From: Acidobacteriota bacterium
GTDB taxonomy: Bacteria; Acidobacteriota; Vicinamibacteria; Vicinamibacterales; JAENWD01
DNA length: 64,000 nucleotides
Direction of reading: 5' to 3'
Assembly: GCA_046735235.1 (NCBI GenBank)
Contig: JBKPSY010000027.1
Coordinates: 2,389-66,388 of the forward strand
The notes under the pieces are model-generated. The model was not told where the DNA came from and did no database searches. It worked only from the letters and a program-made list of their open reading frames with translations. How positions within the stretch are numbered: position 1 is the first letter of the stretch; each line of letters starts with the position of its first letter. Below, in pieces: positions 44,265 through 62,162 of this stretch. Made by a program: the position numbers and the translations under genes.

Positions 44265-44300
44265 CAGCTGCCAGCTGTCAGCCGCCAGCGACAAGATCAC

Positions 44301-46130: not shown

Positions 46131-46258
46131 GGGGAAATGGGAAAGCGGAAAATAGCGAATAGGGAATACCGAATAGGGAATACCGAATAGGAATAGGGAA
46201 AGCCGCACCGAGTGGCGGCTCCGTGCCTTGTCTCCCTATTCGCTATTCCCTATTTCCC
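46131..46258. repeat. AT-richer hairpin with tandem GAATAGGGAATACC units
   Basis: The left arm is GGGAAATGGGAAAGCGGAAAATAGCGAATAGGGAATACCGAATAGGGAATACCGAATAGGAATAGGGA. The right arm TCTCCCTATTCGCTATTCCCTATTTCCC contains the GT2 stop codon. There is a central AGCCGC...GCGGCT mini-hairpin. Confidence 0.7.
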
Positions 46259-47571: not shown

Positions 47572-48974
47572 GATCGCACCTTGGTCGGCTCGAGGCCGAG
47601 GCTGGAGAGCAGCGTCCGCACCCGAGGCCGCACGCTCTCGTCCACGCGCTCGAGGAGCGCCTCGGTCATGCGCGTGCCGCCGGCCGCCGCGATTTTCCGC
47701 AGCATCTCCACCTTGCTCGCGCTCGGACGGGACGTGGCGGCCTCCAGCACGATCAGGCTGTCGAGGACGCCGATGTTCTGGAGCACCTCCGCGGCGCCAT
47801 TTCGCGCGAACGCATCCGCATGATCGAGATATGGCACGAGCACCGACCACACCTCTTCGCCCATCTGCTGGAGCGACTCTCGTGCCGCGAGACGGACCCA
47901 CCACTCCCGGTCGGCCAGCAGCGGTGCGATCTGATCCGCGGTGTCCGTGGCATTGGCCGCGGCGAGCGCGCGGGCCGCGTGCGCCCGGACGTACCAGATC
48001 GGGTCGGCGAGCAGGGGCTGCACGGCGGGTACGGCGCCCGCGCCATCGAGCTCCGCGAGCGTGGCGACAGCCGCCTTGCGGACCAGCGGCGACGGATCCT
48101 TCGTGAGCAGCGCGACGTCGCGCTCGCCGCCCGGCATACGATGACGCGACACGAGCGTCGCGCCCCAGTAGCGCACCTGGGCGTCAGGGTGATGCAGCAG
48201 CGGGACGATCGCGTCAGCGATCGACGCGGGCGACTGATCGATGTACGTGGCGATACGAGAGGGCGAGTACTTGCGGTCCTTGAGGGCGCCGATGAGAGCG
48301 AGGCCCGCGGCGCGATCGTCGAGGCGCCCGAGAACGGCCAGGCTGGCGCCGACGATCTCGGGGTCGTCGTCCAGCGCACGCGCGAGGATTGGCACGAGCG
48401 GCGCGGCTGCGGAGCCCGCGGCCAGCACGCGCATCGCGGCGATTCGTCGCCAGTTGTCCTTCGGGGGCCGGCGTTCGCCCGCCAGCGACTCGAGCGCCGG
48501 ACGGCCGATGCGCGCCACGGCAGCCTCGGCGACGATGCGATCCAGCGAGGCGCGGTGCGTGGTCCCGGACGCGAGCGGCAGCACGACGTCGTCGGCCAGC
48601 GTCGCCATCAGCGAGACGACGGCGGTGCGCAATTCTTCGTCCTGCCGATCCGCGACGGTGATGGCCGCAAAAGCGCGGCGGGCCCGGCCGATGGCGAGGG
48701 CCCGCTGGCCGTTTCTGACGCCTGTGATGAGCAGGTACACGCTGGCCGCTGCCCACGTGACGAACACGAGGACGAACGCAGGCACCAGCAGCACGCCGAC
48801 CAGCTGTGAGGGAGTCAACACCGCTTGTCCGGGTTTTCGGCCGCGCGCGTCAGCGGCAATAGGGACGCCGGCCGGAAAACGGGAGCGGTCGATTCGGCTG
48901 GGCGGGGCCCGTTCCCTCCGGTCAAGGCAACGGAGGCCATACCGAATCGACCGCGCCACCGCAGGGAGGGCCAT
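47568..48974 (-). CDS. HEAT-repeat protein with N-terminal TM helix
   Basis: 468 aa with repeated LLxDPxxxVRxxAAxAL units (at least 6). The TM segment is LVGVLLVPAFVLVFVTWAAASVYLLI. The start is uncertain. Confidence 0.7.
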   Translation of the reverse strand: MALPAVARSIRYGLRCLDRRERAPPSRIDRSRFPAGVPIAADARGRKPGQAVLTPSQLVGVLLVPAFVLVFVTWAAASVYLLITGVRNGQRALAIGRARRAFAAITVADRQDEELRTAVVSLMATLADDVVLPLASGTTHRASLDRIVAEAAVARIGRPALESLAGERRPPKDNWRRIAAMRVLAAGSAAAPLVPILARALDDDPEIVGASLAVLGRLDDRAAGLALIGALKDRKYSPSRIATYIDQSPASIADAIVPLLHHPDAQVRYWGATLVSRHRMPGGERDVALLTKDPSPLVRKAAVATLAELDGAGAVPAVQPLLADPIWYVRAHAARALAAANATDTADQIAPLLADREWWVRLAARESLQQMGEEVWSVLVPYLDHADAFARNGAAEVLQNIGVLDSLIVLEAATSRPSASKVEMLRKIAAAGGTRMTEALLERVDESVRPRVRTLLSSLGLEPTKVRS

Positions 48975-48996
48975 CCCTGCAACGCGCGAGCTCCGA

Positions 48997-49572
48997 CTAG
49001 CGTCCCTGGAGCTGGTTGACGACTCGGTAGTTGTGCGCGACGACCATCGCGGTCACGGCGTTGGCCGCGACCATCGAGACGATGGCGCCCATCTTGTTTC
49101 CGCCGCGCCACATCTTCTCCGACATCAGGATCGTGGTGGCCGCGATGCCTGCCTTCACCGCCATCATCGTCGCCTGGTTCTTGGCCAGCGGCTTCATGAT
49201 CGGGTTGGCTTCATGCGCGCCGAGCGAGATCGCCGTGAAGGTGGACCGCACGTCCATGGCCTGCAGACCGGCCTGCATCGCGTAAAGCGCGGGAAGCGCG
49301 ATCGGACGCGACGGCGCTTCCTTGGGCGTCACGAACGCGTGAAAGAACTTCGGCCCCGTCGACTCGGCGGGCGAGGCGCTTTCCGCCTTCGTCGCGACGG
49401 CGGCGGCCGAGAGCGTCACGGAGGCGGGCACGGGAGCGAGCGGCACGGCGCTGTAGAGCACCGCGCTCGAGGCGGTGTTGGCGGCAAGGAGGTCCTGCGC
49501 CGCTGCGGGCGACTGCGAAAATCCGATGCCAACAAGAACTGCTGCGGCAACGCTGGGGAGCGAGCGAACCAT
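48997..49572 (-). CDS. secreted/membrane protein with C-terminal DUF5658-like domain
   Basis: 191 aa with a signal peptide (..SPAAAQD) and a C-terminal hydrophobic domain with an HEANP motif reminiscent of DUF5658. Confidence 0.5.
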   Translation of the reverse strand: MVRSLPSVAAAVLVGIGFSQSPAAAQDLLAANTASSAVLYSAVPLAPVPASVTLSAAAVATKAESASPAESTGPKFFHAFVTPKEAPSRPIALPALYAMQAGLQAMDVRSTFTAISLGAHEANPIMKPLAKNQATMMAVKAGIAATTILMSEKMWRGGNKMGAIVSMVAANAVTAMVVAHNYRVVNQLQGR

Positions 49573-49838
49573 GACGACACCTCTTCCGGGCTGGGCGGCC
49601 CTCGTGTGGTCGCGTCGCCTCCGGACTCATCGTGCGAGTCCGGCCGGGAGGCCACGCGAACGTTGCCGGAAGACAGGGCAAGCGAAGTGCCCATGGCGGC
49701 GGATCGCTTAAGGCGTTGTGTAGCAGCCGGTTCCTGCATCGTGTGCGGTACCGCACATCGCGCGGAGATCACAGATCTCGCACTCGCGATCTCAGTTGTG
49801 TCGTGGAGTGGAATGACGGCCGCGCGGTCGCGCGATGG

Positions 49839-50588
49839 TCAGGCGCGTGCGCGCTGTGGCTCGCCGGGCTTGAGACCGAGCAGGCGCTTGAGGCGATCGA
49901 CGAGAGAAGTCTGCCCGGCCCCGGGATTTCCGGCTTCCACCAGAAGATCGAGACACGCGGCCACCGAGGGCACACCGCCAATGCCGAGACGCCGCGCGCT
50001 GGCGGGGACGGCGTTCTGATCGCCGCGCCAGATCAGGATCGCACGCGCCTTCGAATCGATCGCGATGTCGAGGCAGTTTTCAGGGCGATCGTCGACGACG
50101 ACGTCGAGCTCGAGCGACGCGGCGATCTTGCCGCGTGACGTCGCCACGACGAACACCGAAGGCATCTCGAAGCCCTTCGCGCGCAGCCAGCGCTGACTCT
50201 GGATCTGGACGATGTCGCCGTCGCTCTTCGGACGGCTGGTGAGGAAAATGACTTCCCAACGCTCGGCGCGCGCCGTGTCCGCGAGCCGCTTCACGATGCC
50301 GGGCTCGGTCTCGTCGAGCGATTCCCAGAAGTTCGGCGTGCGCTTGACCTCCGCCCAGAGCTGACGTTCCTGGCGCGACGTCAGCGAGAGCGACGACGGA
50401 GACACCTCGCCCGGTTCGCGATCGGCGTCCGCTGCGTCGGATGGGGGCGACGCATCAACCACCTGCGGCGTGGCCTCGAGATCCGCGTCGGGGAAACTCA
50501 CGCGGGCCTGACGGACCAGCGCGCCGTTCAGGTCGGCGAGGACTCCATCGAGATCGAAGCCGACGCGGAGGGGCATGGGGTGGCGCAA
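49839..50588 (-). CDS. HAD-superfamily hydrolase (5'-nucleotidase-like)
   Basis: 249 aa with HAD motif I, FDLDGVLADL, and a later TSRP motif. Confidence 0.65.
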   Translation of the reverse strand: MRHPMPLRVGFDLDGVLADLNGALVRQARVSFPDADLEATPQVVDASPPSDAADADREPGEVSPSSLSLTSRQERQLWAEVKRTPNFWESLDETEPGIVKRLADTARAERWEVIFLTSRPKSDGDIVQIQSQRWLRAKGFEMPSVFVVATSRGKIAASLELDVVVDDRPENCLDIAIDSKARAILIWRGDQNAVPASARRLGIGGVPSVAACLDLLVEAGNPGAGQTSLVDRLKRLLGLKPGEPQRARA

Positions 50589-50663
50589 GGATCTTAACTC
50601 GAAGCCGGGCGAACGGGCCTCCGGCCTCGTCGAGGAGCGGCAGGGAAACTGGCGGGGACGGCC

Positions 50664-52517
50664 TCAGCGGGCCGACGAGCGGCGGGGCGTGAGATCGCTT
50701 GCGACCGCGTCGAGATCGACGCCCTGGGCCGCACAGAGGGCCCGGAACCGCCCGTCGGGCGACGCAAGGAGCGAGTTCCAGGTCCCGGATTCGACGATGC
50801 GGCCGTGGTCGAGAACGTGAATTCGATCGGCGTTCCGGATGGTCGAGAGCCGATGGGTGATCACGACGATCGTGATCTGCTCGTGAAGGCGGTCGATGGC
50901 GTCCTGGATCCGGCGCTCGTTCTCCGAGTCGAGCGAGCTGGTTGCCTCATCCAGGATCAAGATCCGGGGGCGCCGGAGAAGAGCGCGCGCCAGCGAGAGC
51001 CGCTGCCGCTCTCCGCCCGAGACGAGCACGCCGCGATCGCCGAGCACGGTCTCGAGGCCATTCGGCAACGCTTGCACGAACTCGTCGGCGGCCGCCGACC
51101 CGAGGGCGCGCCAGATGTCCTCCTCGCTAGCCCCGGGGTTCGCCCACAGGAGGTTCGCGCGCACGCTGTCGTGGAAGAGCAGCGTCTCTTGTGGCACGTA
51201 GCCGATCTGCCGACGCCACGACCGCAGCGCATCGGCGGTCAGGGGCGCACCGTCGATGGTGACCGCGCCGCCGGTGGGCGTCACCAGACCCATCAGCAGG
51301 TCGGCCATCGTGCTCTTCCCCGCGCCCGAGGGCCCGACGATGGCGATGGTCTCGCGCGCTGGCAGCGACAGGCGGACGTGGTCGAGCACGACAGGAGTGC
51401 CAGACGCGTCGTAGCTGAAGCTCAGATCGACCAGATCGATGCTGCCGACGAGAGAGATCTCACGGTGCTGATCCACCCGGGGCTCTGCCGCGGCCAGCGC
51501 TCTGGCCTCGGCCGCCGCAACGGCCTCGAAGCCCGGCAGCTCGACCACGCACGACTGCAACTTGTCGTAGAGACTCGTGACCCGCGGCACCAGGCGTGCG
51601 AAGAGAAACATCAGCAGGAAGAGCGAGGCCGCCGGCATGCCCATGACGGCGTGCGCCACGTAGACAATGACGGCGAGCAGCGCCGCCGAACCGATGTTGA
51701 GCCAGAGACGCGTATCCGCGGCCGCCGCAGCGGCCACACGTCCGACCTCGCCAACCGTGTGCGACAGGCGGCTGAACTCTTCGGCGTGACGGTCCTCGGC
51801 CCCGTACGCCTTGGCGATCTTCATGCTCTCGAGGAAGTCGCTCGTGGCGGCGTGGAGATCGTTCGAGGCCGTGAAGGATTCGTAGCCGGCCGCGCGCGCC
51901 CGAGTGAGACGGCCGCGCACCGCCAGGGCCACCAGGGCGCCGCAGCCCATTACGAGCCGGGTCATCGAGGCCGATACCCGCAGCGCCATCACGACGTAGG
52001 CCAGCGAGATGGCGATCGTCACGAGGAGATCGATCAGGTAGTACGCCGCCGAAGCAACGCCGTCGACCTTGGCCGTCAGCACCTGCAGGAACGACGAGGC
52101 GCGGTTCCTCGAGAAGTAGACCCAGGTACTTCCGGCGACGGCTCGATAGACGCGAGTCCGGAGCGCCTGGACGATGTCCTCGCGCATCCCCGTGTTCACG
52201 ACGGCCAGCCGCCGCTGCAGGAGGCCCTGCAGCGTGATGATCCCGACGTAAAGCGTGAGGACGACAGGCAGCGTCGGTTCGAGCCCCACCGCGGCGAAGC
52301 CACGGCGCAGCGTCGCCAGCAGGCTGCCGAGGGATCCCTGCTGCGCGTCGAGACCCACGAGCTGCAGGAGGGGCACGAGCAGCAACAGGCCGGCGCCTTC
52401 GAACACGCTGACGCCGACTGTCAGCACGGCACTCTCGACCGCGCGACGCGGCGAGGCAGTCAGCAGCGCGACCGCGAAGCGGCGAAGAAGCCGGAGATTC
52501 GAGGGGGACTCGCTCAC
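50664..52517 (-). CDS. ABC exporter, fused permease-ATPase (McjD-like lasso peptide export/immunity candidate)
   Basis: 617 aa with a 6-TM domain and an NBD (GPSGAGKST, VSGGERQRLSLARAL, ILILDEATS). GTGA overlap with the B2 gene stop. Confidence 0.88.
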   Translation of the reverse strand: MSESPSNLRLLRRFAVALLTASPRRAVESAVLTVGVSVFEGAGLLLLVPLLQLVGLDAQQGSLGSLLATLRRGFAAVGLEPTLPVVLTLYVGIITLQGLLQRRLAVVNTGMREDIVQALRTRVYRAVAGSTWVYFSRNRASSFLQVLTAKVDGVASAAYYLIDLLVTIAISLAYVVMALRVSASMTRLVMGCGALVALAVRGRLTRARAAGYESFTASNDLHAATSDFLESMKIAKAYGAEDRHAEEFSRLSHTVGEVGRVAAAAAADTRLWLNIGSAALLAVIVYVAHAVMGMPAASLFLLMFLFARLVPRVTSLYDKLQSCVVELPGFEAVAAAEARALAAAEPRVDQHREISLVGSIDLVDLSFSYDASGTPVVLDHVRLSLPARETIAIVGPSGAGKSTMADLLMGLVTPTGGAVTIDGAPLTADALRSWRRQIGYVPQETLLFHDSVRANLLWANPGASEEDIWRALGSAAADEFVQALPNGLETVLGDRGVLVSGGERQRLSLARALLRRPRILILDEATSSLDSENERRIQDAIDRLHEQITIVVITHRLSTIRNADRIHVLDHGRIVESGTWNSLLASPDGRFRALCAAQGVDLDAVASDLTPRRSSAR

Positions 52518-52984
52518 GATCGAATGAGAGACCCGTCAGGCGCGAAGGCGAACACCGGCACGTACTGGGAGACGGAGGTCACGGATTCTCCGGCAGGCCT
52601 GCCGTTCAACAGGACCCACGCATGGCCGATCACGTTTGCCGCGTCGTTGCGTCCCATGCCAATCACCAGTGTCGGCTCGGCGTGCCCCTCGAGGAGAAAG
52701 CGGTAGGCGATCAGCCCCCGCTCGAGGCAGTTGCCGCCGTCGCGCCACCGCACGAGACGGCAGGCCCACCTCGCGAAGACGACGACGCGCTCGTCACGAT
52801 CGGCGTCGGGCGCGAGGCGCGCGTCGCGCCAGACGAGCCGCACGAGCGATCGAATCGGCATCACACGCTTCAGCACCGGCAGAACGCACGCCCACGTCAT
52901 GATGCGGATCGCCAGCGCCACGTCGGCCAATGACGTGAACCTGGCAGCGACACGCGACACACGGGAAGGAGCGCTCGTCATCAT
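52514..52984 (-). CDS. lasso peptide biosynthesis B2 protein (transglutaminase-like Cys protease)
   Basis: 156 aa with GNCLERGLIAYRFL (catalytic Cys) and VIGHAWVLLNG (His), matching the McjB C-terminal/B2 pattern. Confidence 0.85.
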   Translation of the reverse strand: MMTSAPSRVSRVAARFTSLADVALAIRIMTWACVLPVLKRVMPIRSLVRLVWRDARLAPDADRDERVVVFARWACRLVRWRDGGNCLERGLIAYRFLLEGHAEPTLVIGMGRNDAANVIGHAWVLLNGRPAGESVTSVSQYVPVFAFAPDGSLIRS

Positions 52985-53011
52985 CGACCCGTCTCGAGGG
53001 TCCTCGATCGG

Positions 53012-53926
53012 CTACGCCGACGTGGGACGAGTCACGCGAGCCGATGTCCGGAGGTTCAGCTCCGCGCCTGCGTGATCTTCGATGGCGTCGAACAGCGTGC
53101 CCGCGACCGCAAAGGACCGCTGGAAGCGCAGGCGATACGCGGGCACCGAGGCCGCCAAGTGGGCGTACGCGGTCATCAACTCCTGGTTGTAGCTCGGGAT
53201 CTTGAACGAGAGCGCGTACGCCTGCTGCAGGAGCAGCGGCAGCCGCTCAGCCACGCCGAGCTTCTCGAAGTGCGGGAGCCCTGGGCGATCGTCGTCGCCG
53301 TCGAGGACATAGACGGCACGCAGCGACAGGGGACCCGACGGCCACTCGACCGGCTCGAACGCGTGGCCGGTCTTGCCGAAGTAGTCGGCACTCGCGGGCC
53401 TGAGCCTTGCGTCGTTTCGGAGGGGGTGGAGTCGAACGCCAGCCTCTGACGACGTCGTGAACGCCAGCGTGTCGTCGCTGATCAGCCGCCAGCCTGGGCG
53501 GCGGCCCATCGCGAACGCGGTCGTCGACTTGCCGGCCAGCGTCGGCCCGGTGAAGGCGATGACGTCGCTCGTGTCGGCCGGACCAGCCGCGCTGGCGTGG
53601 ATGACCTGCCGACCCCAGAACGGGTAGATCGCAGGCAGCCAGGCGCGCTGCACGACCTCCCGAAACCAGGAGGTGTCGCTGTCCGGAAATGGAAACGCGG
53701 AAAGTTGGGGATCGAGCGCGGTGAACTGCACCGCCCCGACACTTCGCTGCGAGATCCAGTACTGCTCGCCGAGGCGGTAGCAGTGCGTCGGGAAGGTCTC
53801 AGACGGAGCTGCCGGCCAGGTGGTCAGCAGCTCCGCATCCCGTTGCAATCGATCTTGGAGCCCGGCGTACTCGATGGGCGCGTGCCATTCCATCGAAGGC
53901 TCGGCCCACGGCTCAGTGCCGAGCAT
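53012..53926 (-). CDS. HPr kinase-like P-loop protein (RiPP tailoring kinase candidate)
   Basis: About 304 aa from the ATG at 53926 (AGGGGA SD). Walker A FTGPTLAGKSTTA followed by LISDD, as in HprK C-terminal domain relatives found in lasso clusters. The track start at 54010 would overlap the peptide gene. Confidence 0.7.
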   Translation of the reverse strand: MLGTEPWAEPSMEWHAPIEYAGLQDRLQRDAELLTTWPAAPSETFPTHCYRLGEQYWISQRSVGAVQFTALDPQLSAFPFPDSDTSWFREVVQRAWLPAIYPFWGRQVIHASAAGPADTSDVIAFTGPTLAGKSTTAFAMGRRPGWRLISDDTLAFTTSSEAGVRLHPLRNDARLRPASADYFGKTGHAFEPVEWPSGPLSLRAVYVLDGDDDRPGLPHFEKLGVAERLPLLLQQAYALSFKIPSYNQELMTAYAHLAASVPAYRLRFQRSFAVAGTLFDAIEDHAGAELNLRTSARVTRPTSA

Positions 53927-53952
53927 GACGGTCCCCTGCTCGGGGCAGTTCC

Positions 53953-54147
53953 CTACCGCGGAGTCGCCGGGCACGTGCCGGCGTCGATTTGCATCGCCTC
54001 GCCGCCGCACATCGACTGGCCGTCACCAAAAGTGCCGGACTTGCCGTTGGCGTTTCCCGTCCGCACGAAATCCCGCAGGTTGCCGAGCTCCTGCAACTTC
54101 GGCGAGAGCCAAAGCCGCCGCCCGTTCCCCGAAAGTGATTGCGTCAT
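53953..54147 (-). CDS. candidate lasso-type RiPP precursor peptide (64 aa)
   Basis: MTQSLSGNGRRLWLSPKLQELGNLRDFVRTGNANGKSGTFGDGQSMCGGEAMQIDAGTCPATPR. GGAGAG SD 8 nt upstream of the ATG, and high GC3 in this frame. The leader-like PxLxxxG...T motif, a Gly-rich C-terminal half with Asp/Glu and 2 Cys, and the position between the cyclase and tailoring/B2 genes all fit. Confidence 0.6.
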   Translation of the reverse strand: MTQSLSGNGRRLWLSPKLQELGNLRDFVRTGNANGKSGTFGDGQSMCGGEAMQIDAGTCPATPR

Positions 54148-54199
54148 CGTCACAGCTCTCCGTGTGCGCCCTTTGAGCGAAGGGCACCATGTCCAGCAC

Positions 54200-54266
54200 A
54201 TTCTACCGAATCTCAACCGGAACGCGGCCGTGAAACGCCGGAAACTGGCCTGAATTCTGTATTATA
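54200..54266 (-). promoter_or_regulatory. candidate dedicated promoter(s) for the precursor gene
   Basis: The minus strand reads GGTATAATAC (perfect TATAAT, plus coordinates 54261-54266). A second TAGAAT is at 54200-54205. Both lie in the 148-bp gap between the cyclase stop and the peptide ATG. Confidence 0.45.
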
Positions 54267-54295
54267 CCGGACACAGACTGTTCCCGGAGCGTCTC

Positions 54296-56188
54296 TCAGG
54301 CTCCGGCGTGGTGGGCTATCCAGCGGTCCGCGCTCATCAGGGCGTACATTTCGACCAGTCCGGTCGACAGCATCTCCCCGGTCAAGTCGAAGCGACTCGA
54401 GGCCATTTTCGGGTCGACGACACCAAGGGCCGCCAGCCGGGGGAATTCCCTGAGTTTCGGCCAGGCGGCTGCAACCCCCTTCCACAGGTTCCGCCGGTGG
54501 GTGTCAATCACGCCAGGCCCGTACACCTTTCGCTGGGAGCCAAGTTGGAGCCCGGGGAGCCGCCGATCGGCCACCGGCCGCAGCAGCCCCTTGTAGCGGG
54601 CCCCGTCGAGGAGGACCTGCGCCGGCACGGCGTTGAGAAACCGCACCAGCCGGCGGTCGTGATAGGGGCTGAGCAGCCGAAGGCCGCAGGCCGACTCGAT
54701 GTGGAAGCCCAGCTCGAACTCGTACACGAAATACGGGTTCACGACCGAGCGCTGCTCGTGGCGGTAGAAGTTCGCCGGCACCTGTCCCTTGTCTGTGAGC
54801 GACGCAGGGCGCTGGGAGAGCAGCGTGTCGCGGACGGCTTCCCGAAGCTCGAGGTCGGGGCACAGCCAATCCGGCAGCGCCGCAACGGCACGCCGACGAT
54901 GGTATTGGCTCTTCACGCCGGGCATGAGCTTCGCCGCCCATGCGTCGAGCAGCACACGAGCCCCGCCAGACCACAGGAGCGTCTCGGCAGCGGCACGCAT
55001 CGACAGGCCCCCCGTGTCGGTGTAGGAACGGACGAACCGCGTGAGTTGCCCGAGTCGCAGACGTCGCATGCTCTCAGCGGCGTACGCGTTTCCGACCGAC
55101 ACCCAGTTGTCGCCGCCCGACCCGGTCAGCAGCACCCGCACCTGCTGCGCCGCCGTGCGGCGGTAGAAAGCCATGTAGCTGCCGACCCAGTAGATCCGCG
55201 ACGGCGCCGGCAGCTCCGGCACGATGTCGAGCGACATCTCGACGTCGTTTTGCCCGCCGGTCCACTCGGCCTCCGTCATGAGGATGTGGCGCATGCCGAG
55301 GGCCGACGTGGTCGCCGTCTGCATCGGCTCCTCGCCGCCTTCGAGTGAAGCGCCGCCGCTGCGGCCCGACACCGCCGTGATGAGCGGAGTGCCGTGCGCG
55401 GTCGAATACTCGGCCGCCAGGGCCGCAATCGTCACCGAGTCGAGGCCGCCGCTGAGCATGATCCCCTGGGGATCGAGCTCCATGCATCGCGAGACCGCGT
55501 CGATGAGCGCGGGCTCGAACTGCTCGCGTACCTCCGCGGGCGTCATGTCAGGCTCGCCGTCTTCGAGCCACGGGCTGAAGTATGCGTGCTCGTGGATCGA
55601 CAGATCAGGCGCGATGCGCAGGAATCGGCCCGGAGTGAGCCGGCGGATATCCTCGAAGAATGTCTGCCCTTCCGCGGGCCACTTCGTGAGCGCTGACAGG
55701 ACGAGGGAGACGCGATTGATGCGCCTCGACACGGAACCGCTGTGGGCGATCGCCAACACGTTCGGCCCGAACAGCAACGTGCCCGACGCCGTCGCGTAGT
55801 ACGCCGGGTGATGGCCCAGCGCGTCATGGCCAAGCAGTAGTCGCGACGTTCCAGGATCCCAGATGGCGAGAAAATACGACCCGTCGAGCCGATCGAAGAC
55901 GGCCTCGCCCCACTGCGCGTACGCGGCCGCCGCAATCTGCGCGTCAGTCGCGCCGCCGTCGAGCTGGAGCGAAACCCGAAGCTCCCGCCGCTCGAACAGG
56001 TACCCGTCGAACAGCACGACGCCCGGATCGTCGGCGCGACCGAACGTCGCGATGTCTACGTCCTCCGCGGGACGGACAATCGCCAGCGGGCCGACGCGAC
56101 GCGTCCCGACTGGAAGCGTCTCAGCACTCGTGGCGGGAAAGCACGCGTACCACGTCGGGAGGGCAATCCGACCGGCGCTACTGCTCAC
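54296..56188 (-). CDS. asparagine synthetase B-like lasso peptide cyclase (C protein)
   Basis: 630 aa with the PP-loop motif LSGGLDSVTIAALAAE. The N-terminus is MSSSAGR, with no Cys2 glutaminase nucleophile, as in McjC-type cyclases. Confidence 0.85.
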   Translation of the reverse strand: MSSSAGRIALPTWYACFPATSAETLPVGTRRVGPLAIVRPAEDVDIATFGRADDPGVVLFDGYLFERRELRVSLQLDGGATDAQIAAAAYAQWGEAVFDRLDGSYFLAIWDPGTSRLLLGHDALGHHPAYYATASGTLLFGPNVLAIAHSGSVSRRINRVSLVLSALTKWPAEGQTFFEDIRRLTPGRFLRIAPDLSIHEHAYFSPWLEDGEPDMTPAEVREQFEPALIDAVSRCMELDPQGIMLSGGLDSVTIAALAAEYSTAHGTPLITAVSGRSGGASLEGGEEPMQTATTSALGMRHILMTEAEWTGGQNDVEMSLDIVPELPAPSRIYWVGSYMAFYRRTAAQQVRVLLTGSGGDNWVSVGNAYAAESMRRLRLGQLTRFVRSYTDTGGLSMRAAAETLLWSGGARVLLDAWAAKLMPGVKSQYHRRRAVAALPDWLCPDLELREAVRDTLLSQRPASLTDKGQVPANFYRHEQRSVVNPYFVYEFELGFHIESACGLRLLSPYHDRRLVRFLNAVPAQVLLDGARYKGLLRPVADRRLPGLQLGSQRKVYGPGVIDTHRRNLWKGVAAAWPKLREFPRLAALGVVDPKMASSRFDLTGEMLSTGLVEMYALMSADRWIAHHAGA

Positions 56189-56495
56189 GCGTGACCTTGT
56201 CCGCTACCGGCAGCAGCAGGCCGCCCGCCACCAGCTCGTCCAGCAGCTCGCCGACCGCGCGCGCGATCTCCTCGCCGCTCGAGTGGTACTCCTCGGCCAG
56301 GATTCGCACGATGGCGCCGCGTTCCTCGCCCTCGACTGCCAGCCCGACGATGCGAGCTCCGGTCGCGTTCAGGGCGAACATGGTCTCATCACGGAGATTC
56401 AGAATGAGCGCTTCGTCGCCGCTCGGCTTGAATACCGCGACCGGCGCGAGCAGGTATCGCGTGTGATCGGTCATTGCCGTGGACTCGTCGCTCAC
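56178..56495 (-). CDS. PqqD-family RiPP recognition element protein (B1 candidate, copy 2)
   Basis: 105 aa with ...MFALNATGARIVGLAVEGEERGAIVRILAEEY...LLDELVAGGLL, the PqqD/RRE pattern. GTGA overlap with the methyltransferase stop. Confidence 0.8.
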   Translation of the reverse strand: MSDESTAMTDHTRYLLAPVAVFKPSGDEALILNLRDETMFALNATGARIVGLAVEGEERGAIVRILAEEYHSSGEEIARAVGELLDELVAGGLLLPVADKVTREQ

Positions 56496-57613
56496 ACGTG
56501 CTGCTTGGCGACAGTCTGCACGAACCTGAGCGCCTCGGCCGGCGTGCGGTAGCGATCGGGCTGGAACGCCCGCAGCGACTGCGCGATCTCCGTCATCGTG
56601 CGTCCGCCGTCGCAGAGCGCCAGTACGTGGGCGACGGCGCGCCCCTCGTCCGACAGTTCCGGCCGGTAGTCGAGCGCCGCCTTGCGCAGCGTCGAGGCCT
56701 TCATTGGCGCTGACGCCAGGGTCGAATGCCGCTGGGCTCCAGCCTTAGCCCTCGTCGTCCACAGCCAATCCCCGTACGGCGCGCGCGTGAGCTGAAAGGC
56801 GACGCACTCGCCCTGCTCCAGGGGCATCGGCGGATCCAGGGGCAGGAACGCCAGCGACCAGTGCGACCGCGGTGCGCGCGGCGACGTTGAGAACCAGGTG
56901 TCGCCGAGCTTCGCCGAGAACCACCCGAGCCAGCCGTGACAGATCCCCGAACGCGTGACGATGCTTTCTACGGTGCTGTTGAGCGGCTCGTATTGGCTCT
57001 TATGGAAATCGATCGAGTTGATCAGGACGGGATCGGCCAGCTCGGTGAGCGCCTCGAACCCTTCGGTCCGAAAGAAGAGCGTGTTCGCGGCATACGACCG
57101 CGCGGCCCCGAGATCGACGCCGTGTTGCGGCCGCGACCACGACGCGATTTCACGCTCGTGCAACGCCTCCGCCGTGACCGGCACCACTTCCATGGCCGCG
57201 GCATCAGGAATCAGGTGGCCGCCAGGGCGGAGGAACCGGTCGCGCGCATGGAACAGCACCGGCAGCAGATCCTCGGTGAGCAGGAAGTTGCCGGTGAGGA
57301 CCGAGACGATGACGTCCACCGGCTCGGGCAACGTGACGTCCTCGATGCGGCCCTGGATGCACCGGACGACATCCTGCAGGCCGTTGGCGCGGACGTTCTC
57401 TTCGGCCAGCGCGATGATGTCCTCGGGCTCGACCAGATACACGCGCCGCGCGCCGAGACGCGCGGCCATGAGCCCGTGGACGCCGGTGCCGGCTCCGAGA
57501 TCCAGCACGACGCTGTCCGGAGTGATGGCAGCGGCGAGCGCCCGCGCATAGGCGTCGTTTCGCCACGCATCGAGCGCCATCCCGCGATGGCCTGACACGA
57601 CAACGTAGCTCAT
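56492..57613 (-). CDS. PRMT-like class I SAM methyltransferase with C-terminal RRE-like winged-helix tail
   Basis: 373 aa from the ATG at 57613. SAM motif I VLDLGAGTGVHG, an acidic VEPED, and SVLTGNFLLTEDLL, which resembles the PRMT double-E loop. The C-terminal LALCDGGRTMTEIAQSL...ALRFVQ resembles PqqD. Confidence 0.75.
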   Translation of the reverse strand: MSYVVVSGHRGMALDAWRNDAYARALAAAITPDSVVLDLGAGTGVHGLMAARLGARRVYLVEPEDIIALAEENVRANGLQDVVRCIQGRIEDVTLPEPVDVIVSVLTGNFLLTEDLLPVLFHARDRFLRPGGHLIPDAAAMEVVPVTAEALHEREIASWSRPQHGVDLGAARSYAANTLFFRTEGFEALTELADPVLINSIDFHKSQYEPLNSTVESIVTRSGICHGWLGWFSAKLGDTWFSTSPRAPRSHWSLAFLPLDPPMPLEQGECVAFQLTRAPYGDWLWTTRAKAGAQRHSTLASAPMKASTLRKAALDYRPELSDEGRAVAHVLALCDGGRTMTEIAQSLRAFQPDRYRTPAEALRFVQTVAKQHV

Positions 57614-57627
57614 GAGGCTGGCACCAT

Positions 57628-57915
57628 TCAGACCGCCAGAAACCTGAGCAGCCCGTTGCTCGTGAGCGCGTCGATCAGCCGCTCCACGTCGTCCCGCATC
57701 TGCGACGGGTCGGCGTCGAACTCCTGCAGCAGGGTCTCGTACGCCGCCTGCACCGACGGCATCGTCGTCAAAAGCTCCCACACGCGAGTTCCCACCTCGT
57801 CGAGCGTGAACGACCGCCCCGTGGCGACGTCGACCACCACGGTGATGCCGTCGACAGGACGGCTGATCACGCTGTCAGGCACGAGGAAGCGAATCCGATC
57901 AAACTCGAGCGGCAT
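57628..57915 (-). CDS. PqqD-family RiPP recognition element protein (B1 candidate, copy 1)
   Basis: 95 aa with ..FTLDEVGTRVWELLTTMPSVQAAYETLLQEFDADP...LIDALTSNGLL. Confidence 0.8.
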   Translation of the reverse strand: MPLEFDRIRFLVPDSVISRPVDGITVVVDVATGRSFTLDEVGTRVWELLTTMPSVQAAYETLLQEFDADPSQMRDDVERLIDALTSNGLLRFLAV

Positions 57916-57928
57916 GCGTCGGTGTCAC

Positions 57929-59518
57929 CTAGGGTCCGGCCTCGACGCTGACCACCGGCCAGCTCGCAGCGCGAGCGACTTCCGGCGAATCGTCGCGCAC
58001 GAACACGGAGTTGTGCTCCATCAGGTACGGCTGGGTCACGGGATGCGGCAGATAGCGATCGACGAACGTCTGGTTGGTGATGAGCATGACGTCCCAATAG
58101 CCGGCCTCGACCTGCGCGGCCTCGAACAGCTCGCGGGCGTGCCTGGCAAGGGCGGCCGACACAACCCCGATGACGAAGTCGGGCTTGTGCGCCAGCGATC
58201 GATCGACGTCGTAATGGTTGTGCCCCGTGAACGGGTTCTTCGGGTCTGGTTGCAGGTGTCCGATTTCGCGATCCACCTTCCCGAGCATGTCGAACGCCGT
58301 GCGGTGACTGAAGTACCCCATCGCGCCGGCCGCGGCCACGAGGATTGTCGCTTCCGGGCGGCTGTTACGATTGATCAGCCACGCCGCGACGACCTGGCCC
58401 TGCACGAGGCCGTTGTTGACCGCCCATCCCAGCGACTGGCGGCCGGTGATGCCCGACACCATCACCGTGGACACGAACAGCACCGTCGCCAGAACCATCG
58501 CCACGCGGCGCTCGCTTACGACCGCGATGCCGGCGGCCGCGAACACGATCAGCAGCGGCACGATCGGCGCGATGAAGCGGAAGTGAAAGAACATGTCCGC
58601 CCCGACGAGCACGATCCGCAGCGCGATGAACACGCATGTCATCAACAGGATTCGAATCCGGCGATCGCCCGACGTGACGGCGGCGGCCAGGGCGAGCACG
58701 ACGAGCGTCGGGTACGCCTGGAGGAAGCCCTTCATGTATCCAAGGCCGCTCCAGAAGAGCCCCGATCGGCCGGCGACCTTCAGGTAGTACGTGTTCGGCA
58801 GCCAGTCGCCGTAGTAGTTGATCCGGAACGTCAGGTGCACGGCGAGCGGCAGCGCTGCGAAGACGACGGCCCAGAGCCTGCGGCGGCTTCCCAGCAGGAA
58901 GCCGGCGGCGACGACGATCGCCGTCAGGTCAGCAGCGTCGCTGCGGATGATCGGCAGCAGCCCGGCGAGCAGGCACGTGACGATCGAGCATTCGCCGCGG
59001 TCCGCATCGTCGAGCGCGCGTGTGAGCGCCCACAGAAACACCACGGTGAGCAACGTCGTCTCGAAGCCGTTGACGGCCCAGTAGATCAAATCTATCGAGA
59101 GGGCCAGCGTGCCGAGCGCGGCGAGTCGCAGCCAGCCTGGCGGGCTAGCAAGCCGTCGCAACAGGCGATCCGTGAAGATGAGGATGACCACGGCGAGGCC
59201 GATGTTGATGAGCTCGACCGCCAGGGAAGTCAGACGTTCTGGCACCCCTGCAGCGTGCACCGCGGCCATCACGAACACCCATCCGAGGTTCGTGTAGCCC
59301 TCCACTCGATCTCCGGCGTTCCAGACGAGCCCCAGGCCATCGGCCAGGTTTCTCGCGTACCGCATCGAGATCATCTGGTCGTCGTCCAGGTAGTAGTAGC
59401 GCTGGTGGTCGATGACAACGGTCGCCTGCCGGATCGCCGCGAACGACACCAGCACCATGACCGCCGCCGCAACGACGAGCGGGAGCCTCGACGCGCGCGC
59501 GGGCGACGTGGACGTCAT
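57929..59518 (-). CDS. polytopic membrane protein, GT-C-like putative glycosyltransferase
   Basis: 529 aa from the ATG at 59518 (ATGA overlap with the upstream gene). About 11 or more TM helices, a first-loop acidic motif YYYLDDDQ, and a C-terminal soluble domain. Family assignment is tentative. Confidence 0.45.
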   Translation of the reverse strand: MTSTSPARASRLPLVVAAAVMVLVSFAAIRQATVVIDHQRYYYLDDDQMISMRYARNLADGLGLVWNAGDRVEGYTNLGWVFVMAAVHAAGVPERLTSLAVELINIGLAVVILIFTDRLLRRLASPPGWLRLAALGTLALSIDLIYWAVNGFETTLLTVVFLWALTRALDDADRGECSIVTCLLAGLLPIIRSDAADLTAIVVAAGFLLGSRRRLWAVVFAALPLAVHLTFRINYYGDWLPNTYYLKVAGRSGLFWSGLGYMKGFLQAYPTLVVLALAAAVTSGDRRIRILLMTCVFIALRIVLVGADMFFHFRFIAPIVPLLIVFAAAGIAVVSERRVAMVLATVLFVSTVMVSGITGRQSLGWAVNNGLVQGQVVAAWLINRNSRPEATILVAAAGAMGYFSHRTAFDMLGKVDREIGHLQPDPKNPFTGHNHYDVDRSLAHKPDFVIGVVSAALARHARELFEAAQVEAGYWDVMLITNQTFVDRYLPHPVTQPYLMEHNSVFVRDDSPEVARAASWPVVSVEAGP

Positions 59519-60627
59519 GGCTTGACCCACTTGTGCGCTCCCGTCAGGAGCCGGTGCACGTAGAGCGCCGGGAGCAGCAGCGAACCCTTCACGCCGTACC
59601 GCTCGCGGATAAAGGCCGGCGGCGGAAATGCGTGCTCGCGGATCAGGCGAAGCCGGGCACGCCACGAGCCGAGCGCCGCGAGGTCGCTGGCCAGCACCTG
59701 GCGACGCGTGAGCTGCCCCTCCAGATACCGGTGCGACGGTTCCGACGGCGCAGCCTCGGTGAGCGCTCGCTCGACGGACGCGGGTAGTGTGGCCCTCAGT
59801 TGATTGCGGGCCTGCTGAAGGCCGTCGAGGCACAGCCCGGCGACGCGTCGCTCGCACGCCAGCCGCGCGACGGCAGCCCAGCCGGCGTCGTCCAGTTGCG
59901 CGCCGAGCAGCCTGATGTCCTCCAGCCAAATCAACCGGTCGTGCCCCTGGTGATGCGCCAGCCGATGAATGCAGGCAAGGACGAGCGATGCGGGATGCGA
60001 GGGCATCCGCGCCGACGCGTCGAGTGCCGCGATCGGCAACGCGTCGAGCCAGAGCTCGTCGAAGGGCAATGAATCGGCCAGCATCTGCGGGTTCACGATC
60101 TTCCAGTGCAAGTCGATGACGTGCGAGACGCCAGTCGGATCGACGCGCTCGAAGCTCGCCTGGTGGCTCACGAACTCGCCCGACGTCATGGCATTGCTGC
60201 GCTGATATCCGGCCTCGCTCAGCGCGTGTTCGGCCGCGGCCACCTGCTCGGATGACACCAGGACGTCAGTGTCCATTCGCGGGCGGTGCCATGGGGCGCC
60301 GTACACCGAATATGCGAGCGCCGCGCCTTTCATCAACAGCGCGCGGACGCCGGCCACCGACAGCGACCGCAGCATCGACGAGAGCTCGCGCTGCTCCAGA
60401 AGGTCCCAGGCCATGGCCATCCGCGCACGGGACGCGAGCGCGGCGACGAGCGATTCCGGCGCGCCTGGCATCGTTGAGATCGCCTGCCACACAAGTCGAT
60501 CGACGCCGTGCTCGTCAGCCTCGGCGGCGAGATCGTCGACGGGGTGCTCGGCAAGCTCCCGCGCCGACACGTCGCCGCGGAGAATGCGTGCGAGCAGCCA
60601 CTCCGCGGCCAAAGGTTCAGCAGTCAC
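59515..60627 (-). CDS. uncharacterised nucleotidyltransferase family protein (NTP_transf_5 / PF14907-like)
   Basis: 370 aa with ...LLMKGAALAYSVYGAPWHRPRMDTDVLV...IDLHWKI.... This pattern is typical of the PF14907 family, which often neighbours PqqD/HprK-like genes. Confidence 0.65.
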   Translation of the reverse strand: MTAEPLAAEWLLARILRGDVSARELAEHPVDDLAAEADEHGVDRLVWQAISTMPGAPESLVAALASRARMAMAWDLLEQRELSSMLRSLSVAGVRALLMKGAALAYSVYGAPWHRPRMDTDVLVSSEQVAAAEHALSEAGYQRSNAMTSGEFVSHQASFERVDPTGVSHVIDLHWKIVNPQMLADSLPFDELWLDALPIAALDASARMPSHPASLVLACIHRLAHHQGHDRLIWLEDIRLLGAQLDDAGWAAVARLACERRVAGLCLDGLQQARNQLRATLPASVERALTEAAPSEPSHRYLEGQLTRRQVLASDLAALGSWRARLRLIREHAFPPPAFIRERYGVKGSLLLPALYVHRLLTGAHKWVKP

Positions 60628-60647
60628 CAGATTGCGAAATCAGTGGG

Positions 60648-62162
60648 TCAGTCGAGCGGGGCCGGGGCGACCGGCCTGACGGCAGTCGCCGAGTCCCGGC
60701 CGCTCGACGGACGATGGAGCGCGATTGCTGCGACGACGACGAAGGCGACCGCATTCCCCGGCATCTGAAGGCTGAACTCGACGACCGATTGCAGCGCGAT
60801 CGCCGCCACGGCCGTCGCAGCGCCGAACCGGATCCATGACGTTGCGGGATCGTCTTGACCCGACGAGAAACGCCGCCGGATTCCATCCGCGAAGAGGACC
60901 AGCGTCAATACGATCGGCACGCCCACGAGCAGCCCGCCCTCGGCAGCGAGTTGCAGGTAGTCGTTGTGGGCTTCCAACACCATCAGCTCGTCCGAGGCCG
61001 TCTGGTAGACGCGCATCGCGGCCGCGAACGTGTTGTATCCGGTTCCCACGACGGGGAAGTCTTCCACCACGCGAACGGCGTCGGACCAGATCACTTTCCG
61101 CAGTTGAAACGACGTGTTGCGGGTCGCGAGACGCTCTCCGACGTTGGCGTTGGCCCACAGCACCGGCGCAGCCACGAGGACGCCGATCGCCAGAACGACG
61201 GCAGCCCGCGCGCGGATCGAGCGCTGCCGCCGGACCACGGCCAGCGCGGCGACGGCCATGGCCATGCCGAAGCAGGCGATGCCCGACCGCGAGAGCGTCA
61301 TCATCAGCGAGACGGCCATCACCACGACGGCGAACGCCGCAATCTGGAGGCGTCCACCCTCGGGCGACGACAGCCAGAGGAAACGATGGCGCCAGCCTGG
61401 CCGGACGTTGCGCATGCCGATCTCGGCCTGCGCCAACAAGTAGCCGAGCGCCGTCGGCAGCGCCATCAGCATCCAGCCCGCGAAATGGTTCTTGTTCACG
61501 AACGGGCCGAACGGCGTCGTCAGCTTGAACCGCGGCTCCCAGAAGCCGTAGATCTTCATGCCGTCCCACGCCTGATCTCCGAGGACCGCCTTCTGGATGA
61601 TTCCGATCAGCGCGACCACCACGCCGAAGACCATGAACCAGCCCGCAAAGCGCCGCGCGCCGAAGCGGTTGCAGTGCCGGATGAGCCCGGCGAGCAGCAG
61701 CGAGAACGAGGCCAGGAGCAGCAGCCCTCGCGCGGTCGCGGCGGGGTCAATCGACAGCGGCCGGCTCGGCATCGACGATTGCGCGCCGGCGTCCACTGCC
61801 GCGCTCATGCTTGCGAACACGAGGTCGATCTGCCGGAGGATGATCCCGTTGGCGGGGCTGACCGCATCCACCACGCGCGCGGGCCACGAGATCAGCTGCA
61901 GCGCCGCGGCAAGGATCACGAGCGCAAGCGCCAGCAGCAGCCTCCGTTGATCCTTCAGCAGGCCCGTCGGACGTGTGCCGAACCACCCGGCGATGCCGAC
62001 GACAGCTGCGCCGAGCGCGAGCGGGATGTACGCCCACGGGTAAGGGGAGCCGAACGCCAGGACACCCCAGGCCACGACCAGAACCGCGCCGGCGAACACG
62101 GCCCATCCGATCGCGTCGAGGGCCGGGCGGTGGCGTCCGCTGCTATCCGAGTTGTGGGACAT
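60648..62162 (-). CDS. O-antigen ligase / Wzy_C-domain membrane protein
   Basis: About 504 aa with 10 or more TM helices, TLSRSGI and the EAHNDYLQLAAEGGLL motif of Wzy_C (shared by WaaL, Wzy-like proteins and PglL-type O-oligosaccharyltransferases). ATG at 62162; the track starts at a TTG at 62165. Confidence 0.8.
   Translation of the reverse strand: MSHNSDSSGRHRPALDAIGWAVFAGAVLVVAWGVLAFGSPYPWAYIPLALGAAVVGIAGWFGTRPTGLLKDQRRLLLALALVILAAALQLISWPARVVDAVSPANGIILRQIDLVFASMSAAVDAGAQSSMPSRPLSIDPAATARGLLLLASFSLLLAGLIRHCNRFGARRFAGWFMVFGVVVALIGIIQKAVLGDQAWDGMKIYGFWEPRFKLTTPFGPFVNKNHFAGWMLMALPTALGYLLAQAEIGMRNVRPGWRHRFLWLSSPEGGRLQIAAFAVVVMAVSLMMTLSRSGIACFGMAMAVAALAVVRRQRSIRARAAVVLAIGVLVAAPVLWANANVGERLATRNTSFQLRKVIWSDAVRVVEDFPVVGTGYNTFAAAMRVYQTASDELMVLEAHNDYLQLAAEGGLLVGVPIVLTLVLFADGIRRRFSSGQDDPATSWIRFGAATAVAAIALQSVVEFSLQMPGNAVAFVVVAAIALHRPSSGRDSATAVRPVAPAPLD

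Follow-up and report, generated by a model that had tools for sequence, protein, structure and literature searches.

We describe here a gene set in a 64,000-nucleotide stretch of DNA from an Acidobacteriota bacterium of the class Vicinamibacteria (GenBank assembly GCA_046735235.1, contig JBKPSY010000027.1, positions 2,389 to 66,388 of the forward strand), hereafter called the window. Eight consecutive open reading frames (ORFs) in the ORF list of the window, all on the minus strand, span positions 50664-57915, and we put at about 0.75 the probability that this region is a functional gene cluster, of the subclass that carries a kinase and a nucleotidyltransferase, from which a Vicinamibacteria host makes a tailored lasso peptide. 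An earlier reading of the letters alone (the original prediction) had named these eight genes, and each identity was reproduced. They are listed below, where aa stands for amino acids, RRE for the recognition element of ribosomally made peptides with post-translational modifications (RiPPs), PRMT for protein arginine methyltransferase, SAM for S-adenosylmethionine and MT for methyltransferase.

50664-52517, minus strand: fused ABC exporter D, 617 aa (PF00005 113.7 bits, PF00664 31.4 bits)
52514-52984, minus strand: B2 leader peptidase, 156 aa, a transglutaminase-core Cys protease (NF033537, PF13471)
53012-53926, minus strand: peptide kinase K, 304 aa, an HPrK/PEPCK-fold P-loop protein (fold, alignment with BsfK)
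53953-54147, minus strand: precursor peptide A, 64 aa (homologues, ribosome-binding site, core pattern)
54296-56188, minus strand: lasso cyclase C, 630 aa, an Asn-synthetase homologue (PF00733 76 bits, GATase_7 52 bits)
56178-56495, minus strand: RRE2, 105 aa, PqqD-type (PF05402 44.9 bits)
56492-57613, minus strand: PRMT-fold SAM methyltransferase MT, 373 aa (Pfam PRMT_C and Methyltransf_25, fold)
57628-57915, minus strand: RRE1, 95 aa, a PqqD-type leader-binding protein (PF05402 62.6 bits)

The components by which a lasso cluster is recognised are present: a B2 protease, an RRE, a cyclase with a PP-loop and no Cys nucleophile, and a core with a small residue 1 and an acidic residue at 7-9. 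Of the systems studied so far, the bsf cluster of Bradymonas sediminis FA350 comes closest; it comprises A, B1, B2, C, D, BsfK and BsfN (Duan et al. 2023, PMC10368454). The B2 protein scores above the cutoffs of both NF033537 (lasso_biosyn_B2; 46.7 bits, cutoff 33) and PF13471 (49.9 bits, cutoff 26), as its predicted transglutaminase core demanded. Its Cys86 and His121-Ala-Trp are invariant among 17 aligned homologues, with an acidic residue at His+12, and it is 27% identical to BsfB2; a sequence search of the PDB returned no match for it.

The two free PqqD/RRE proteins both pass PF05402, and their scores fall under the cutoffs of the lineage-specific NCBIfam lasso_PqqD models. RRE2 is 22% identical to RRE1, and RRE1 is 21% identical to BsfB1. 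Judged from its sequence and neighbours, RRE1 is probably the B1 partner of B2; its orthologue lies directly before B2 in three related loci (L002, L003 and L010).

In the Asn-synthetase homologue, the PP-loop SGGLDS occupies residues 246-251, and S-G-G-x-D-S is kept in the 31 homologues examined, none of which (0/31) has the N-terminal Cys nucleophile. Distant homologues start MSGIAG, that is, with Ser in place of Cys, and the N-terminus is still more degenerate in the Vicinamibacteria clade. Since the Cys is absent, the protein is neither an exopolysaccharide (EPS) nor an AsnB amidotransferase, and it is this absence, together with the genomic context, and not the scores of hidden Markov models, on which the name cyclase is based. 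By sequence, its only matches in the PDB were a hydroxyamidotransferase and AsnB, with no solved lasso enzyme. The B2 protease, the discrete RREs, the Cys-less AsnB-like enzyme and the fused exporter of the original prediction were thus all recovered.

The predicted gene overlaps held in part. Start/stop overlaps join B2 to D (4 nt), the methyltransferase to RRE2 (4 nt) and RRE2 to the cyclase (11 nt), and the arrangement indicates that RRE2 is translationally coupled to the methyltransferase upstream and to the cyclase downstream. The apparent coding overlaps of RRE1 with the methyltransferase and of the kinase with the precursor are ORF-calling artefacts, because the methyltransferase starts at the ATG at 57613 (373 aa, as in almost all homologues) and not at 57781, and the kinase starts at the ATG at 53926 (304 aa).

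Precursor peptide and leader insertion

The precursor gene starts with an ATG preceded, 8 nt upstream, by a GGAGAG ribosome-binding site. Its homologues comprise 32 distinct sequences, from related loci and from 26 database clusters, and in every complete related locus examined a homologue sits between the cyclase and kinase genes. Numbered from the predicted cleavage site, 13 positions are invariant in the 32 sequences (W-22, P-19, L-14, G-13, V-7, G-4, A-2, G1, S3, D8, G9, E16 and M18) and K2 is found in 31, whereas positions 4-7, 10-12 and the tail past M18 are variable. Judged by this conservation, 53953-54147, which had been noted as a small peptide gene, encodes a genuine, selected and structured peptide, far past chance. 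The predicted parts of the precursor are:

Predicted leader, residues 1-34: W-22 L S P-19 K L-17 … V R T G N A-2 N-1
Predicted core, 30 aa: G1 K2 S3 GTFG D8 G9 QSM C13 GG E16 A M18 QIDAGT C25 PATPR

The core pattern G-x-S-x4-D-G matches that of BsfA. Moreover, most of 25 other precursor families linked to a homologous methyltransferase have Asp or Glu at position 8-9, followed by Gly, which fits a bond between G1 and D8; an eight-residue Gly1-Asp8 macrolactam therefore appears to be the likelier ring. Two Cys residues occur in 26 of the 32 cores, none in 5 and one in 1. Given this pattern of none or two, a structural disulfide is to be expected, and in the window peptide it would more probably than not join Cys13 to Cys25 in the tail.

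The invariant leader motif W-x-x-P-x-L stands at -22 to -17 from the sole Gly that could plausibly form the ring. The canonical Y-x-x-P-x-L at -17 to -12 with Thr(-2) was not found, since position -2 is Ala, or Val under canonical spacing. The 25 other families have the canonical Y-17, P-14 and L-12, usually T-2, and then a small residue 1. Aligned with this template, the Vicinamibacteria leader matches residue for residue up to V-R (compare Ile-Arg in BsfA), and a five-residue insertion, x-G-[NHQ]-A-[NYF], then separates V-R from the invariant G-K-S. A core that began at the canonical cut would have a variable residue 1 (T, V, S, M, H or E) and no Asp or Glu at 7-9. Because only a cut past the insertion yields a standard core G1…D8, we favour, with some reserve, cleavage by B2 after Ala(-2)-Asn(-1).

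Only the Vicinamibacteria lineage, in which the five-residue insertion is found too, yielded orthologues of RRE2; this co-occurrence, a single evolutionary coincidence, is suggestive. A comparison of the RRE Tyr that contacts residue -2 with the Ala(-2) leaders revealed no clean pattern of covariation.

Two unusual small ORFs were seen in related loci. In a metagenome-assembled genome (MAG) of a gammaproteobacterium (L012, 13151-13570, plus strand), the precursor candidate is 139 aa long, with a canonical lasso leader, YRSPALQRFGRLSRLTQ, and core, GSGGNGNDGGGVM, fused to a C-terminal domain of about 100 aa with a weak match to Peptidase_S74 (intramolecular chaperone/autoprotease). In L022 (about 7430-7590, plus strand), a second leader-bearing small ORF lies past the methyltransferase, its leader ending in YVPPRLTTFGDVRVITQ before the core QKGGGMMGGGGMGKKSFL; as this core lacks any Asp or Glu, it could not form a standard lasso ring.

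Kinase, nucleotidyltransferase and methyltransferase

The HPr-kinase-like protein was identified by fold comparison and by pairwise alignment with BsfK. Its AlphaFold2 model, with a mean predicted local distance difference test score (pLDDT) of 88, matched PEPCK and HPrK/P structures in Foldseek (3tqf, 1kkl, 2qmh), and BLASTP aligned it to BsfK with 25% identity over 210 aa (E 6e-6), the pattern H…G-x4-GKS…DD being kept. Set beside the pattern H…G-x2-G-x-G-K-S…D-D of such kinases, the motif residues are H110, G-P-T-L-A-G-K133-S134 and D151-D152, in which the middle Gly is replaced by Leu; the BsfK variant G166A, the counterpart of this position, stays active (Duan et al. 2023, PMC10368454). 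Sequence searches of Pfam and the PDB gave nothing useful for this protein, so that the original prediction stands for the fold and for the relationship to BsfK and not for PF07475, which the window protein itself does not match; the kinase orthologues of L016, L034 and L038 do pass PF07475. In all, 198 kinase homologues were found.

BsfK phosphorylates Ser3 of G1-T2-S3-G-N-E-V-D8-G9 on the leader-bearing precursor, and BsfB1 is needed by both the kinase and B2 (PMC10368454). Since Ser3 is invariant in the window family and parallels that of BsfA, the kinase may well phosphorylate Ser3 of the leader-bearing precursor.

A nucleotidyltransferase gene (N, NTP_transf_5 family) lies upstream, beyond the coordinates of the original prediction, and adjoins the set in nearly all related loci. 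In pseudomycoidin, its counterpart PsmN is required for placing a hexose on the phosphoserine. The kinase and nucleotidyltransferase part is a known subclass, represented by paeninodin, pseudomycoidin and bsf, and is not new.

For the methyltransferase, both sequence profile and fold agree with the PRMT-like assignment made earlier. A profile of 18 family members matched PRMT6, PRMT2, CARM1, PRMT3 and PRMT1 in the PDB over residues 2-281 (E 1e-53 to 1e-42, with PRMT6 at the top). Moreover, the top 50 solved structures found by Foldseek with the AlphaFold2 model (pLDDT 86) were all PRMTs, with target-normalised TM-scores of 0.71-0.86. The SAM-binding motifs are intact. In the double-E loop, the first Glu is Val or Ala clade-wide (S-V-L-T-G-N), so that the two Glu residues that mark PRMTs are not both there; the second Glu, E114, together with D115 and H251-W252 of the THW loop, is invariant in the window clade. 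The THW loop becomes I-[ND]-R in a distant lasso-linked clade. Three clades were thus distinguished: free-standing PRMT-like proteins with canonical loops, the window clade (Vicinamibacteria and Gammaproteobacteria), and the distant lasso-linked clade, in which both loops are remodelled.

Residues ~300-373 form a C-terminal three-helix domain of about 75 aa that is absent from PRMTs. In a sample of 55 bacterial methyltransferase homologues from a species-level genome collection, this domain and the lasso genes were found together: 34 of 35 loci with the domain carry lasso genes, the exception being a 2-kb contig, against 3 of 20 loci in which the domain is absent or different (Fisher p 3e-10, uncorrected for phylogeny). 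Weak, sub-threshold matches to the PqqD Pfam model were seen in 12 of 17 copies of the domain. It is probably, as far as sequence can tell, a module that docks the peptide or an RRE.

We consider it probable that the methyltransferase acts on the peptide. The methyl group might go to Lys2, to the phosphate on Ser3, to Glu16 or the C-terminal carboxylate, or to Met18. Met as a near-universal target, which had seemed apparent in 10 of 11 families, was dropped after wider sampling: across 26 MT-linked precursor families, including that of the window, Met is found in 18 and Lys or Arg in 19, and none of Lys/Arg, Met and Cys is universal. In the distant clade, precursors often end in Cys-Leu (MPCL, MACL, SQCL, WHCL, GSCL, MMCL) and have Met-rich tails, as seen in L023, L024, L026, L027, L028, L030, L031 and L032, where the precursor ORFs lie just upstream of the methyltransferase. 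This Cys-Leu end, conserved across phyla, might be the target of the remodelled enzyme of the distant clade; it does not apply to the window peptide.

Genomic surroundings, distribution and known systems

The lasso genes form the middle of a co-directional array of about 17.7 kb. The annotated neighbours in the array, all on the minus strand, are:

46243-47571, minus strand: GT2-like membrane protein (Pfam match)
47568-48974, minus strand: HEAT-repeat protein (Pfam match)
48997-49572, minus strand: DUF5658 protein (Pfam match)
49839-50588, minus strand: NT5C-like HAD protein (Pfam match)
59515-60627, minus strand: NTP_transf_5 protein N, 370 aa (PF14907 127 bits, cutoff 31.2)
60648-62165, minus strand: Wzy_C-family membrane protein (PF04932 75 bits)
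62143-63354, minus strand: geranylgeranyl-reductase-family flavoprotein (TIGR02032 171 bits, cutoff 158.8)
63527-64000, minus strand: Bac_transf-type priming sugar transferase, partial at the window end (KFRSM, DELPQLWN and MSFVGPR motifs)

Read in the direction of the genes, the order upstream is Bac_transf, flavoprotein, Wzy_C, NTP_transf_5 and a GT-C-like membrane protein, and then the lasso genes, after which come the HAD, DUF5658, HEAT-repeat and GT2-like genes. In Vicinamibacteria, NTP_transf_5, Wzy_C, HAD, DUF5658 and the flavoprotein still adjoin the set after several rearrangements. Orthologues of the downstream neighbours flank it in L001, L004, L009, L011, L014 and L007, and in part in L002, L006 and L010; the genes at 46243-50588 are possible members of the system. 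More distantly, Wzy_C, geranylgeranyl-reductase-like, Bac_transf, GT4, Wzz/BY-kinase and BBP2_2 porin genes flank sets in Pseudomonadota (L016), Gammaproteobacteria (L012) and Acidobacteria (L034). Wzy_C and geranylgeranyl-reductase-family genes in particular recur beside the set in Vicinamibacteria, in L016 and in L034, and are possible accessory genes. The flavoprotein lies at 62143-63354 (minus strand) in the window, at 15930-17024 in L016, where it abuts B2, at 2374-3534 in L034 and at 1916-3091 in L002; its role might be that of a polyprenol reductase or of an oxidoreductase acting on the peptide. These surroundings suggest a functional tie of the lasso set to polyprenol-linked glycan assembly.

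Just outside the array, mfd (TRCF), a SurA-like peptidyl-prolyl isomerase and dus occupy 38920-45431 on the plus strand. As L001 has TRCF and a rotamase at the corresponding place, the chromosomal position of the island is also conserved. Long plus-strand ORFs lie antisense to genes at 46000-62000, such as those at 50805-52706 (633 aa) and at 57656-59563 (635 aa); they are typical high-GC shadow ORFs and not genes. The 148-nt spacer between the cyclase and peptide genes (54148-54295) has a GC content below that of its surroundings and holds a perfect TATAAT at about 54262-54267. A promoter and terminator scan around the peptide gene returned no sites, the simple promoter search having passed over this TATAAT because no good -35 element accompanies it.

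The gene set is no one-off; it is a large, conserved and unstudied subfamily, widespread among soil Acidobacteriota that are uncultured. The methyltransferase has more than 800 homologues at E < 1e-5, most of them metagenomic and 55-70% identical, and those linked to lasso genes are spread over at least eight phyla. Independent MAGs of Vicinamibacteria retain the order RRE1-MT-RRE2-C-A-K-B2-D, at protein identities of 55-68%, or have B2 after RRE1 instead. Sets of the form RRE-(B2)-C-MT-(K)(N) with canonical precursors were found in Rokubacteria, Terriglobia, Binatia, Nitrospirae, Actinomycetota, Planctomycetota, Myxococcota (including the cultured Labilithrix luteola DSM 27648, NZ_CP012333.1, about 7.842-7.863 Mb) and Proteobacteria. 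The closest relative is a Vicinamibacteria MAG (L007, CAWBBN010000027.1) with identical gene order, in which nearly every gene is split into several ORFs; this points to indel errors of long-read assembly and not to pseudogenes. In its peptide, three residues instead of four separate GKS from D, which is probably an assembly error too.

Compared with known systems, the window shares with bsf the precursor, a discrete B1, B2, the cyclase, the ABC exporter, an HPrK-like kinase and N. Both cores start G-x-S and have Asp8-Gly9, and both leaders have a penultimate residue other than Thr, which is Ile(-2) in BsfA (PMC10368454). However, bsf has no methyltransferase and a single RRE, its leader has the canonical Y-17 with Ile(-2)Arg(-1) directly before Gly1, where xGNAx is inserted in the window peptide, and BsfA lacks the Cys pair and Met of the window core. 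The Bacillota systems paeninodin and pseudomycoidin (PadeK, PsmK, PsmN) likewise combine an HPrK-family kinase acting on the leader-bearing precursor with split B1/B2 and an ABC exporter, and in pseudomycoidin a PF14907-type protein adds hexose to the phosphate. PadeK and PsmK, however, phosphorylate the Ser at the C-terminus. The window peptide has Arg there and its invariant Ser at 3. The Bacillota clusters also lack a methyltransferase, a second RRE and the glycan-locus context. The uncharacterised HPr-rel-A system also pairs an HPrK-related kinase with a PqqD-family chaperone. Since the scores against both TIGR04352 (HprK-related kinase A; 16.4 bits, cutoff 200) and TIGR04353 (PqqD_rel_X; 25.9 bits, cutoff 35) lie under the curated cutoffs, the window proteins are relatives of these families and not members.

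With regard to methylation, SAM-dependent tailoring of lasso peptides is known from the lassomycin-type C-terminal O-methyltransferases (LasF/StspM) and from PIMT homologues (TceM/LihM, aspartimide). LasF and StspM resemble small-molecule O-methyltransferases and TceM/LihM are of the PIMT type, whereas the window enzyme has a PRMT fold with a β-barrel, a THW-type loop and an extra domain. It shares the Rossmann and β-barrel core of eukaryotic type I PRMTs (PRMT1/3/6, CARM1) at 28-33% identity, and keeps the Arg/Glu/Gly motifs for SAM binding, the second of the two Glu residues in the double-E loop and the His-Trp of THW. It differs from them in the first Glu (Val/Ala), in an invariant Asn for the Tyr past the loop Gly, in the Asp after the kept Glu, and in the added 75-aa helical domain; it is also bacterial, lies in a RiPP operon, and Arg is not conserved in the cores. 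Reviews of lasso tailoring (2022, June 2026) list methylation only as C-terminal ester formation and as Asp methylation leading to aspartimide. In the literature searched, we found no link between a PRMT-like enzyme and a RiPP and nothing relevant on Vicinamibacteria and lasso peptides or on EPS with HPrK and PqqD, in agreement with the earlier statement that no characterised lasso peptide is made by this combination. The unusual character noted for the set is to be qualified: the methyltransferase, the second RRE and the leader insertion are indeed uncharacterised, but the kinase and nucleotidyltransferase part belongs to a known subclass and the set is widespread. A known lasso, kinase and nucleotidyltransferase chassis is thus joined here by an unstudied PRMT-fold enzyme, a second RRE, a displaced cleavage site and a recurrent glycan-locus context. 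The nucleotidyltransferase, the leader insertion, the C-terminal domain of the methyltransferase and the glycan locus had been absent from the original prediction.

Proposed pathway and alternatives

From the gene identities, folds, catalytic motifs, precursor conservation and synteny described above, we infer the following chemical steps by analogy with studied systems. A PqqD-type RRE would bind the 64-aa precursor through the W-x-x-P-x-L leader motif. With the leader still on, the HPrK-fold kinase would phosphorylate core Ser3, as BsfK does, and the PRMT-fold enzyme would methylate the peptide, recruited by a free RRE, by its own C-terminal helical domain, or by both. The B2 Cys protease would then free Gly1 of G-K-S by cutting five residues past the canonical distance, after the invariant Ala(-2), and the cyclase would adenylate Asp8 and enclose the tail in an eight-residue Gly1-Asp8 macrolactam. 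Decoration of the phosphate may fall to the NTP_transf_5 protein. Finally, the ABC transporter would export the peptide, with Cys13 and Cys25 forming a disulfide internal to the tail. For a G1-D8 lasso with one disulfide, the calculated monoisotopic mass is 2909.22 Da unmodified, 2989.19 Da with phosphate, 3003.20 Da with phosphate and methyl, and 3151.24 Da with phosphate and hexose; the leader would weigh 3828.0 Da if cut after Asn34 and 3370.8 Da if cut after Arg29, the latter cut leaving a linear core of 3386.44 Da.

Several observations weigh against this reading. The cyclase scores under the cutoff of the NF033535 lasso-cyclase model (118.6 vs 525 bits), as it does under that of the AsnB NCBIfam model (132.8 vs 267 bits). 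Canonical spacing puts the end of the leader at V-R, five residues before G1, and the RRE Tyr that contacts Thr(-2) in FusE and BsfB1 is Ser in RRE1 and Met in RRE2. Alignment of the C-terminal domain of the methyltransferase with local RRE alignments by hhalign gave probabilities of 0.2% (global) and 6% (local, E 0.006), which are not significant. The site of methylation cannot be deduced from the precursors, because no candidate side chain is common to 26 of 26 families. Since the cluster is embedded in a glycan-assembly locus, its peptide is perhaps not a free secondary metabolite. Moreover, no product has been observed for any member of the family, and the mature product of bsf was never observed either (PMC10368454).

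Among the alternatives, the reading in which the Asn-synthetase homologue is an EPS amidotransferase and no RiPP is made was rejected as wholly improbable: the EPS-type context and a weak match to TIGR03108 (XrtA/PEP-CTERM EPS amidotransferase, 80.8 bits) speak for it, but the cutoff of that model is 816.9 bits, the match covers only the N-terminal third (residues 53-276), the Cys is absent in 31 of 31 homologues, B2 is above its cutoffs, and a precursor with a lasso leader lies between the cyclase and kinase genes in every complete locus examined. Canonical cleavage by B2 after V-R (Arg29), with xGNAx either kept in a 13-residue ring closed at Asp13' or trimmed back to Gly1, is a more serious contender, although we think it rather unlikely. 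W, P, L, G, L, F and V align residue-wise with the Y-17…T/V-2 leaders of the 25 related families, V at the canonical -2 is invariant (32/32), leaders with Val or Ile(-2) have been reported in Acidobacteria and Bradymonadales, and the distance of the cut is normally set by RRE and B2 geometry. Set against this, residue 1 would be too variable for the N-terminal nucleophile of a cyclase, positions 7-9 would be K, S and x, with no acidic acceptor, and a 13-residue ring would be unprecedented. The invariant G1, D8 and G9 of GKS…DG superimpose on BsfA and the other families, and G(-4) and A(-2) within the insertion are invariant, as a recognition site would be; these points argue for the displaced cut after Ala(-2)-Asn(-1).

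That the methyltransferase is a self-protection or housekeeping protein methyltransferase travelling with the cluster, the peptide being left unmodified, would agree with a target that the precursors do not reveal and with the existence of bacterial PRMT-like enzymes without lasso neighbours (the SEW…DE, THW clade). We regard it as improbable: the methyltransferase gene overlaps RRE2 stop to start and is flanked by two RRE genes, its C-terminal domain is lasso-specific (34/35 vs 3/20), the active-site loops are remodelled in the lasso-co-occurring lineages relative to the free-standing clade, and in distant phyla the gene directly adjoins C and K. The surroundings raise a further alternative, in which the peptide is a dedicated part of a polyprenol-linked glycan or EPS pathway, phospho-glycosylated through the NTP_transf_5 protein, a Wzy_C-type ligase and GT2/GT-C enzymes, with a role at the surface or in the matrix. 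A single co-directional array runs from Bac_transf through the GT2-like gene, glycan genes flank orthologous sets despite rearrangements (including L016, L012 and L034), and PsmN-dependent hexosylation of a lasso phosphoserine provides a precedent. However, co-localisation alone does not establish a shared pathway, the GT-C-like gene is found only in the window and its closest relative, and a dedicated ABC exporter suits a secreted small peptide. Many distant sets with the methyltransferase (Rokubacteria, Nitrospirae) have no Wzy-like ORF within 10 kb, as judged by phmmer with window proteins as the only queries, a screen that found only RRE, cyclase, methyltransferase and kinase genes. We therefore give this reading a minor share of the probability. 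Somewhat more doubtful still is its extension, in which the PRMT-fold enzyme would install a methylation new to RiPPs (Nε-methyl-Lys2, a methyl ester on the Ser3 phosphate and S-methyl-Met18 being candidates), the two RREs would read the extended leader and the resulting phospho-/methyl-lasso peptide would serve the glycan machinery. A tailored lasso peptide, exported after displaced cleavage, remains the reading that we prefer.

Lasso peptides are prized as scaffolds, and the list of reactions that tailor them is still short; knowing what the methyltransferase modifies would lengthen it by a new reaction and give bacterial PRMT homologues a function. The shift of the cleavage site by five residues, in combination with the second RRE, amounts to a natural experiment on how RRE and B2 geometry sets the boundary between leader and core. 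Moreover, that these sets are found repeatedly within loci for polysaccharide assembly prompts the question of what use lasso peptides are to the organisms that make them, a question that can be tested, since a homologous set is present in the cultured Labilithrix luteola DSM 27648. If true, the reading of a phospho-/methyl-lasso peptide as a partner of glycan assembly would establish a 'glyco-lasso' system of the cell surface, common among the Acidobacteriota and Proteobacteria of soil.

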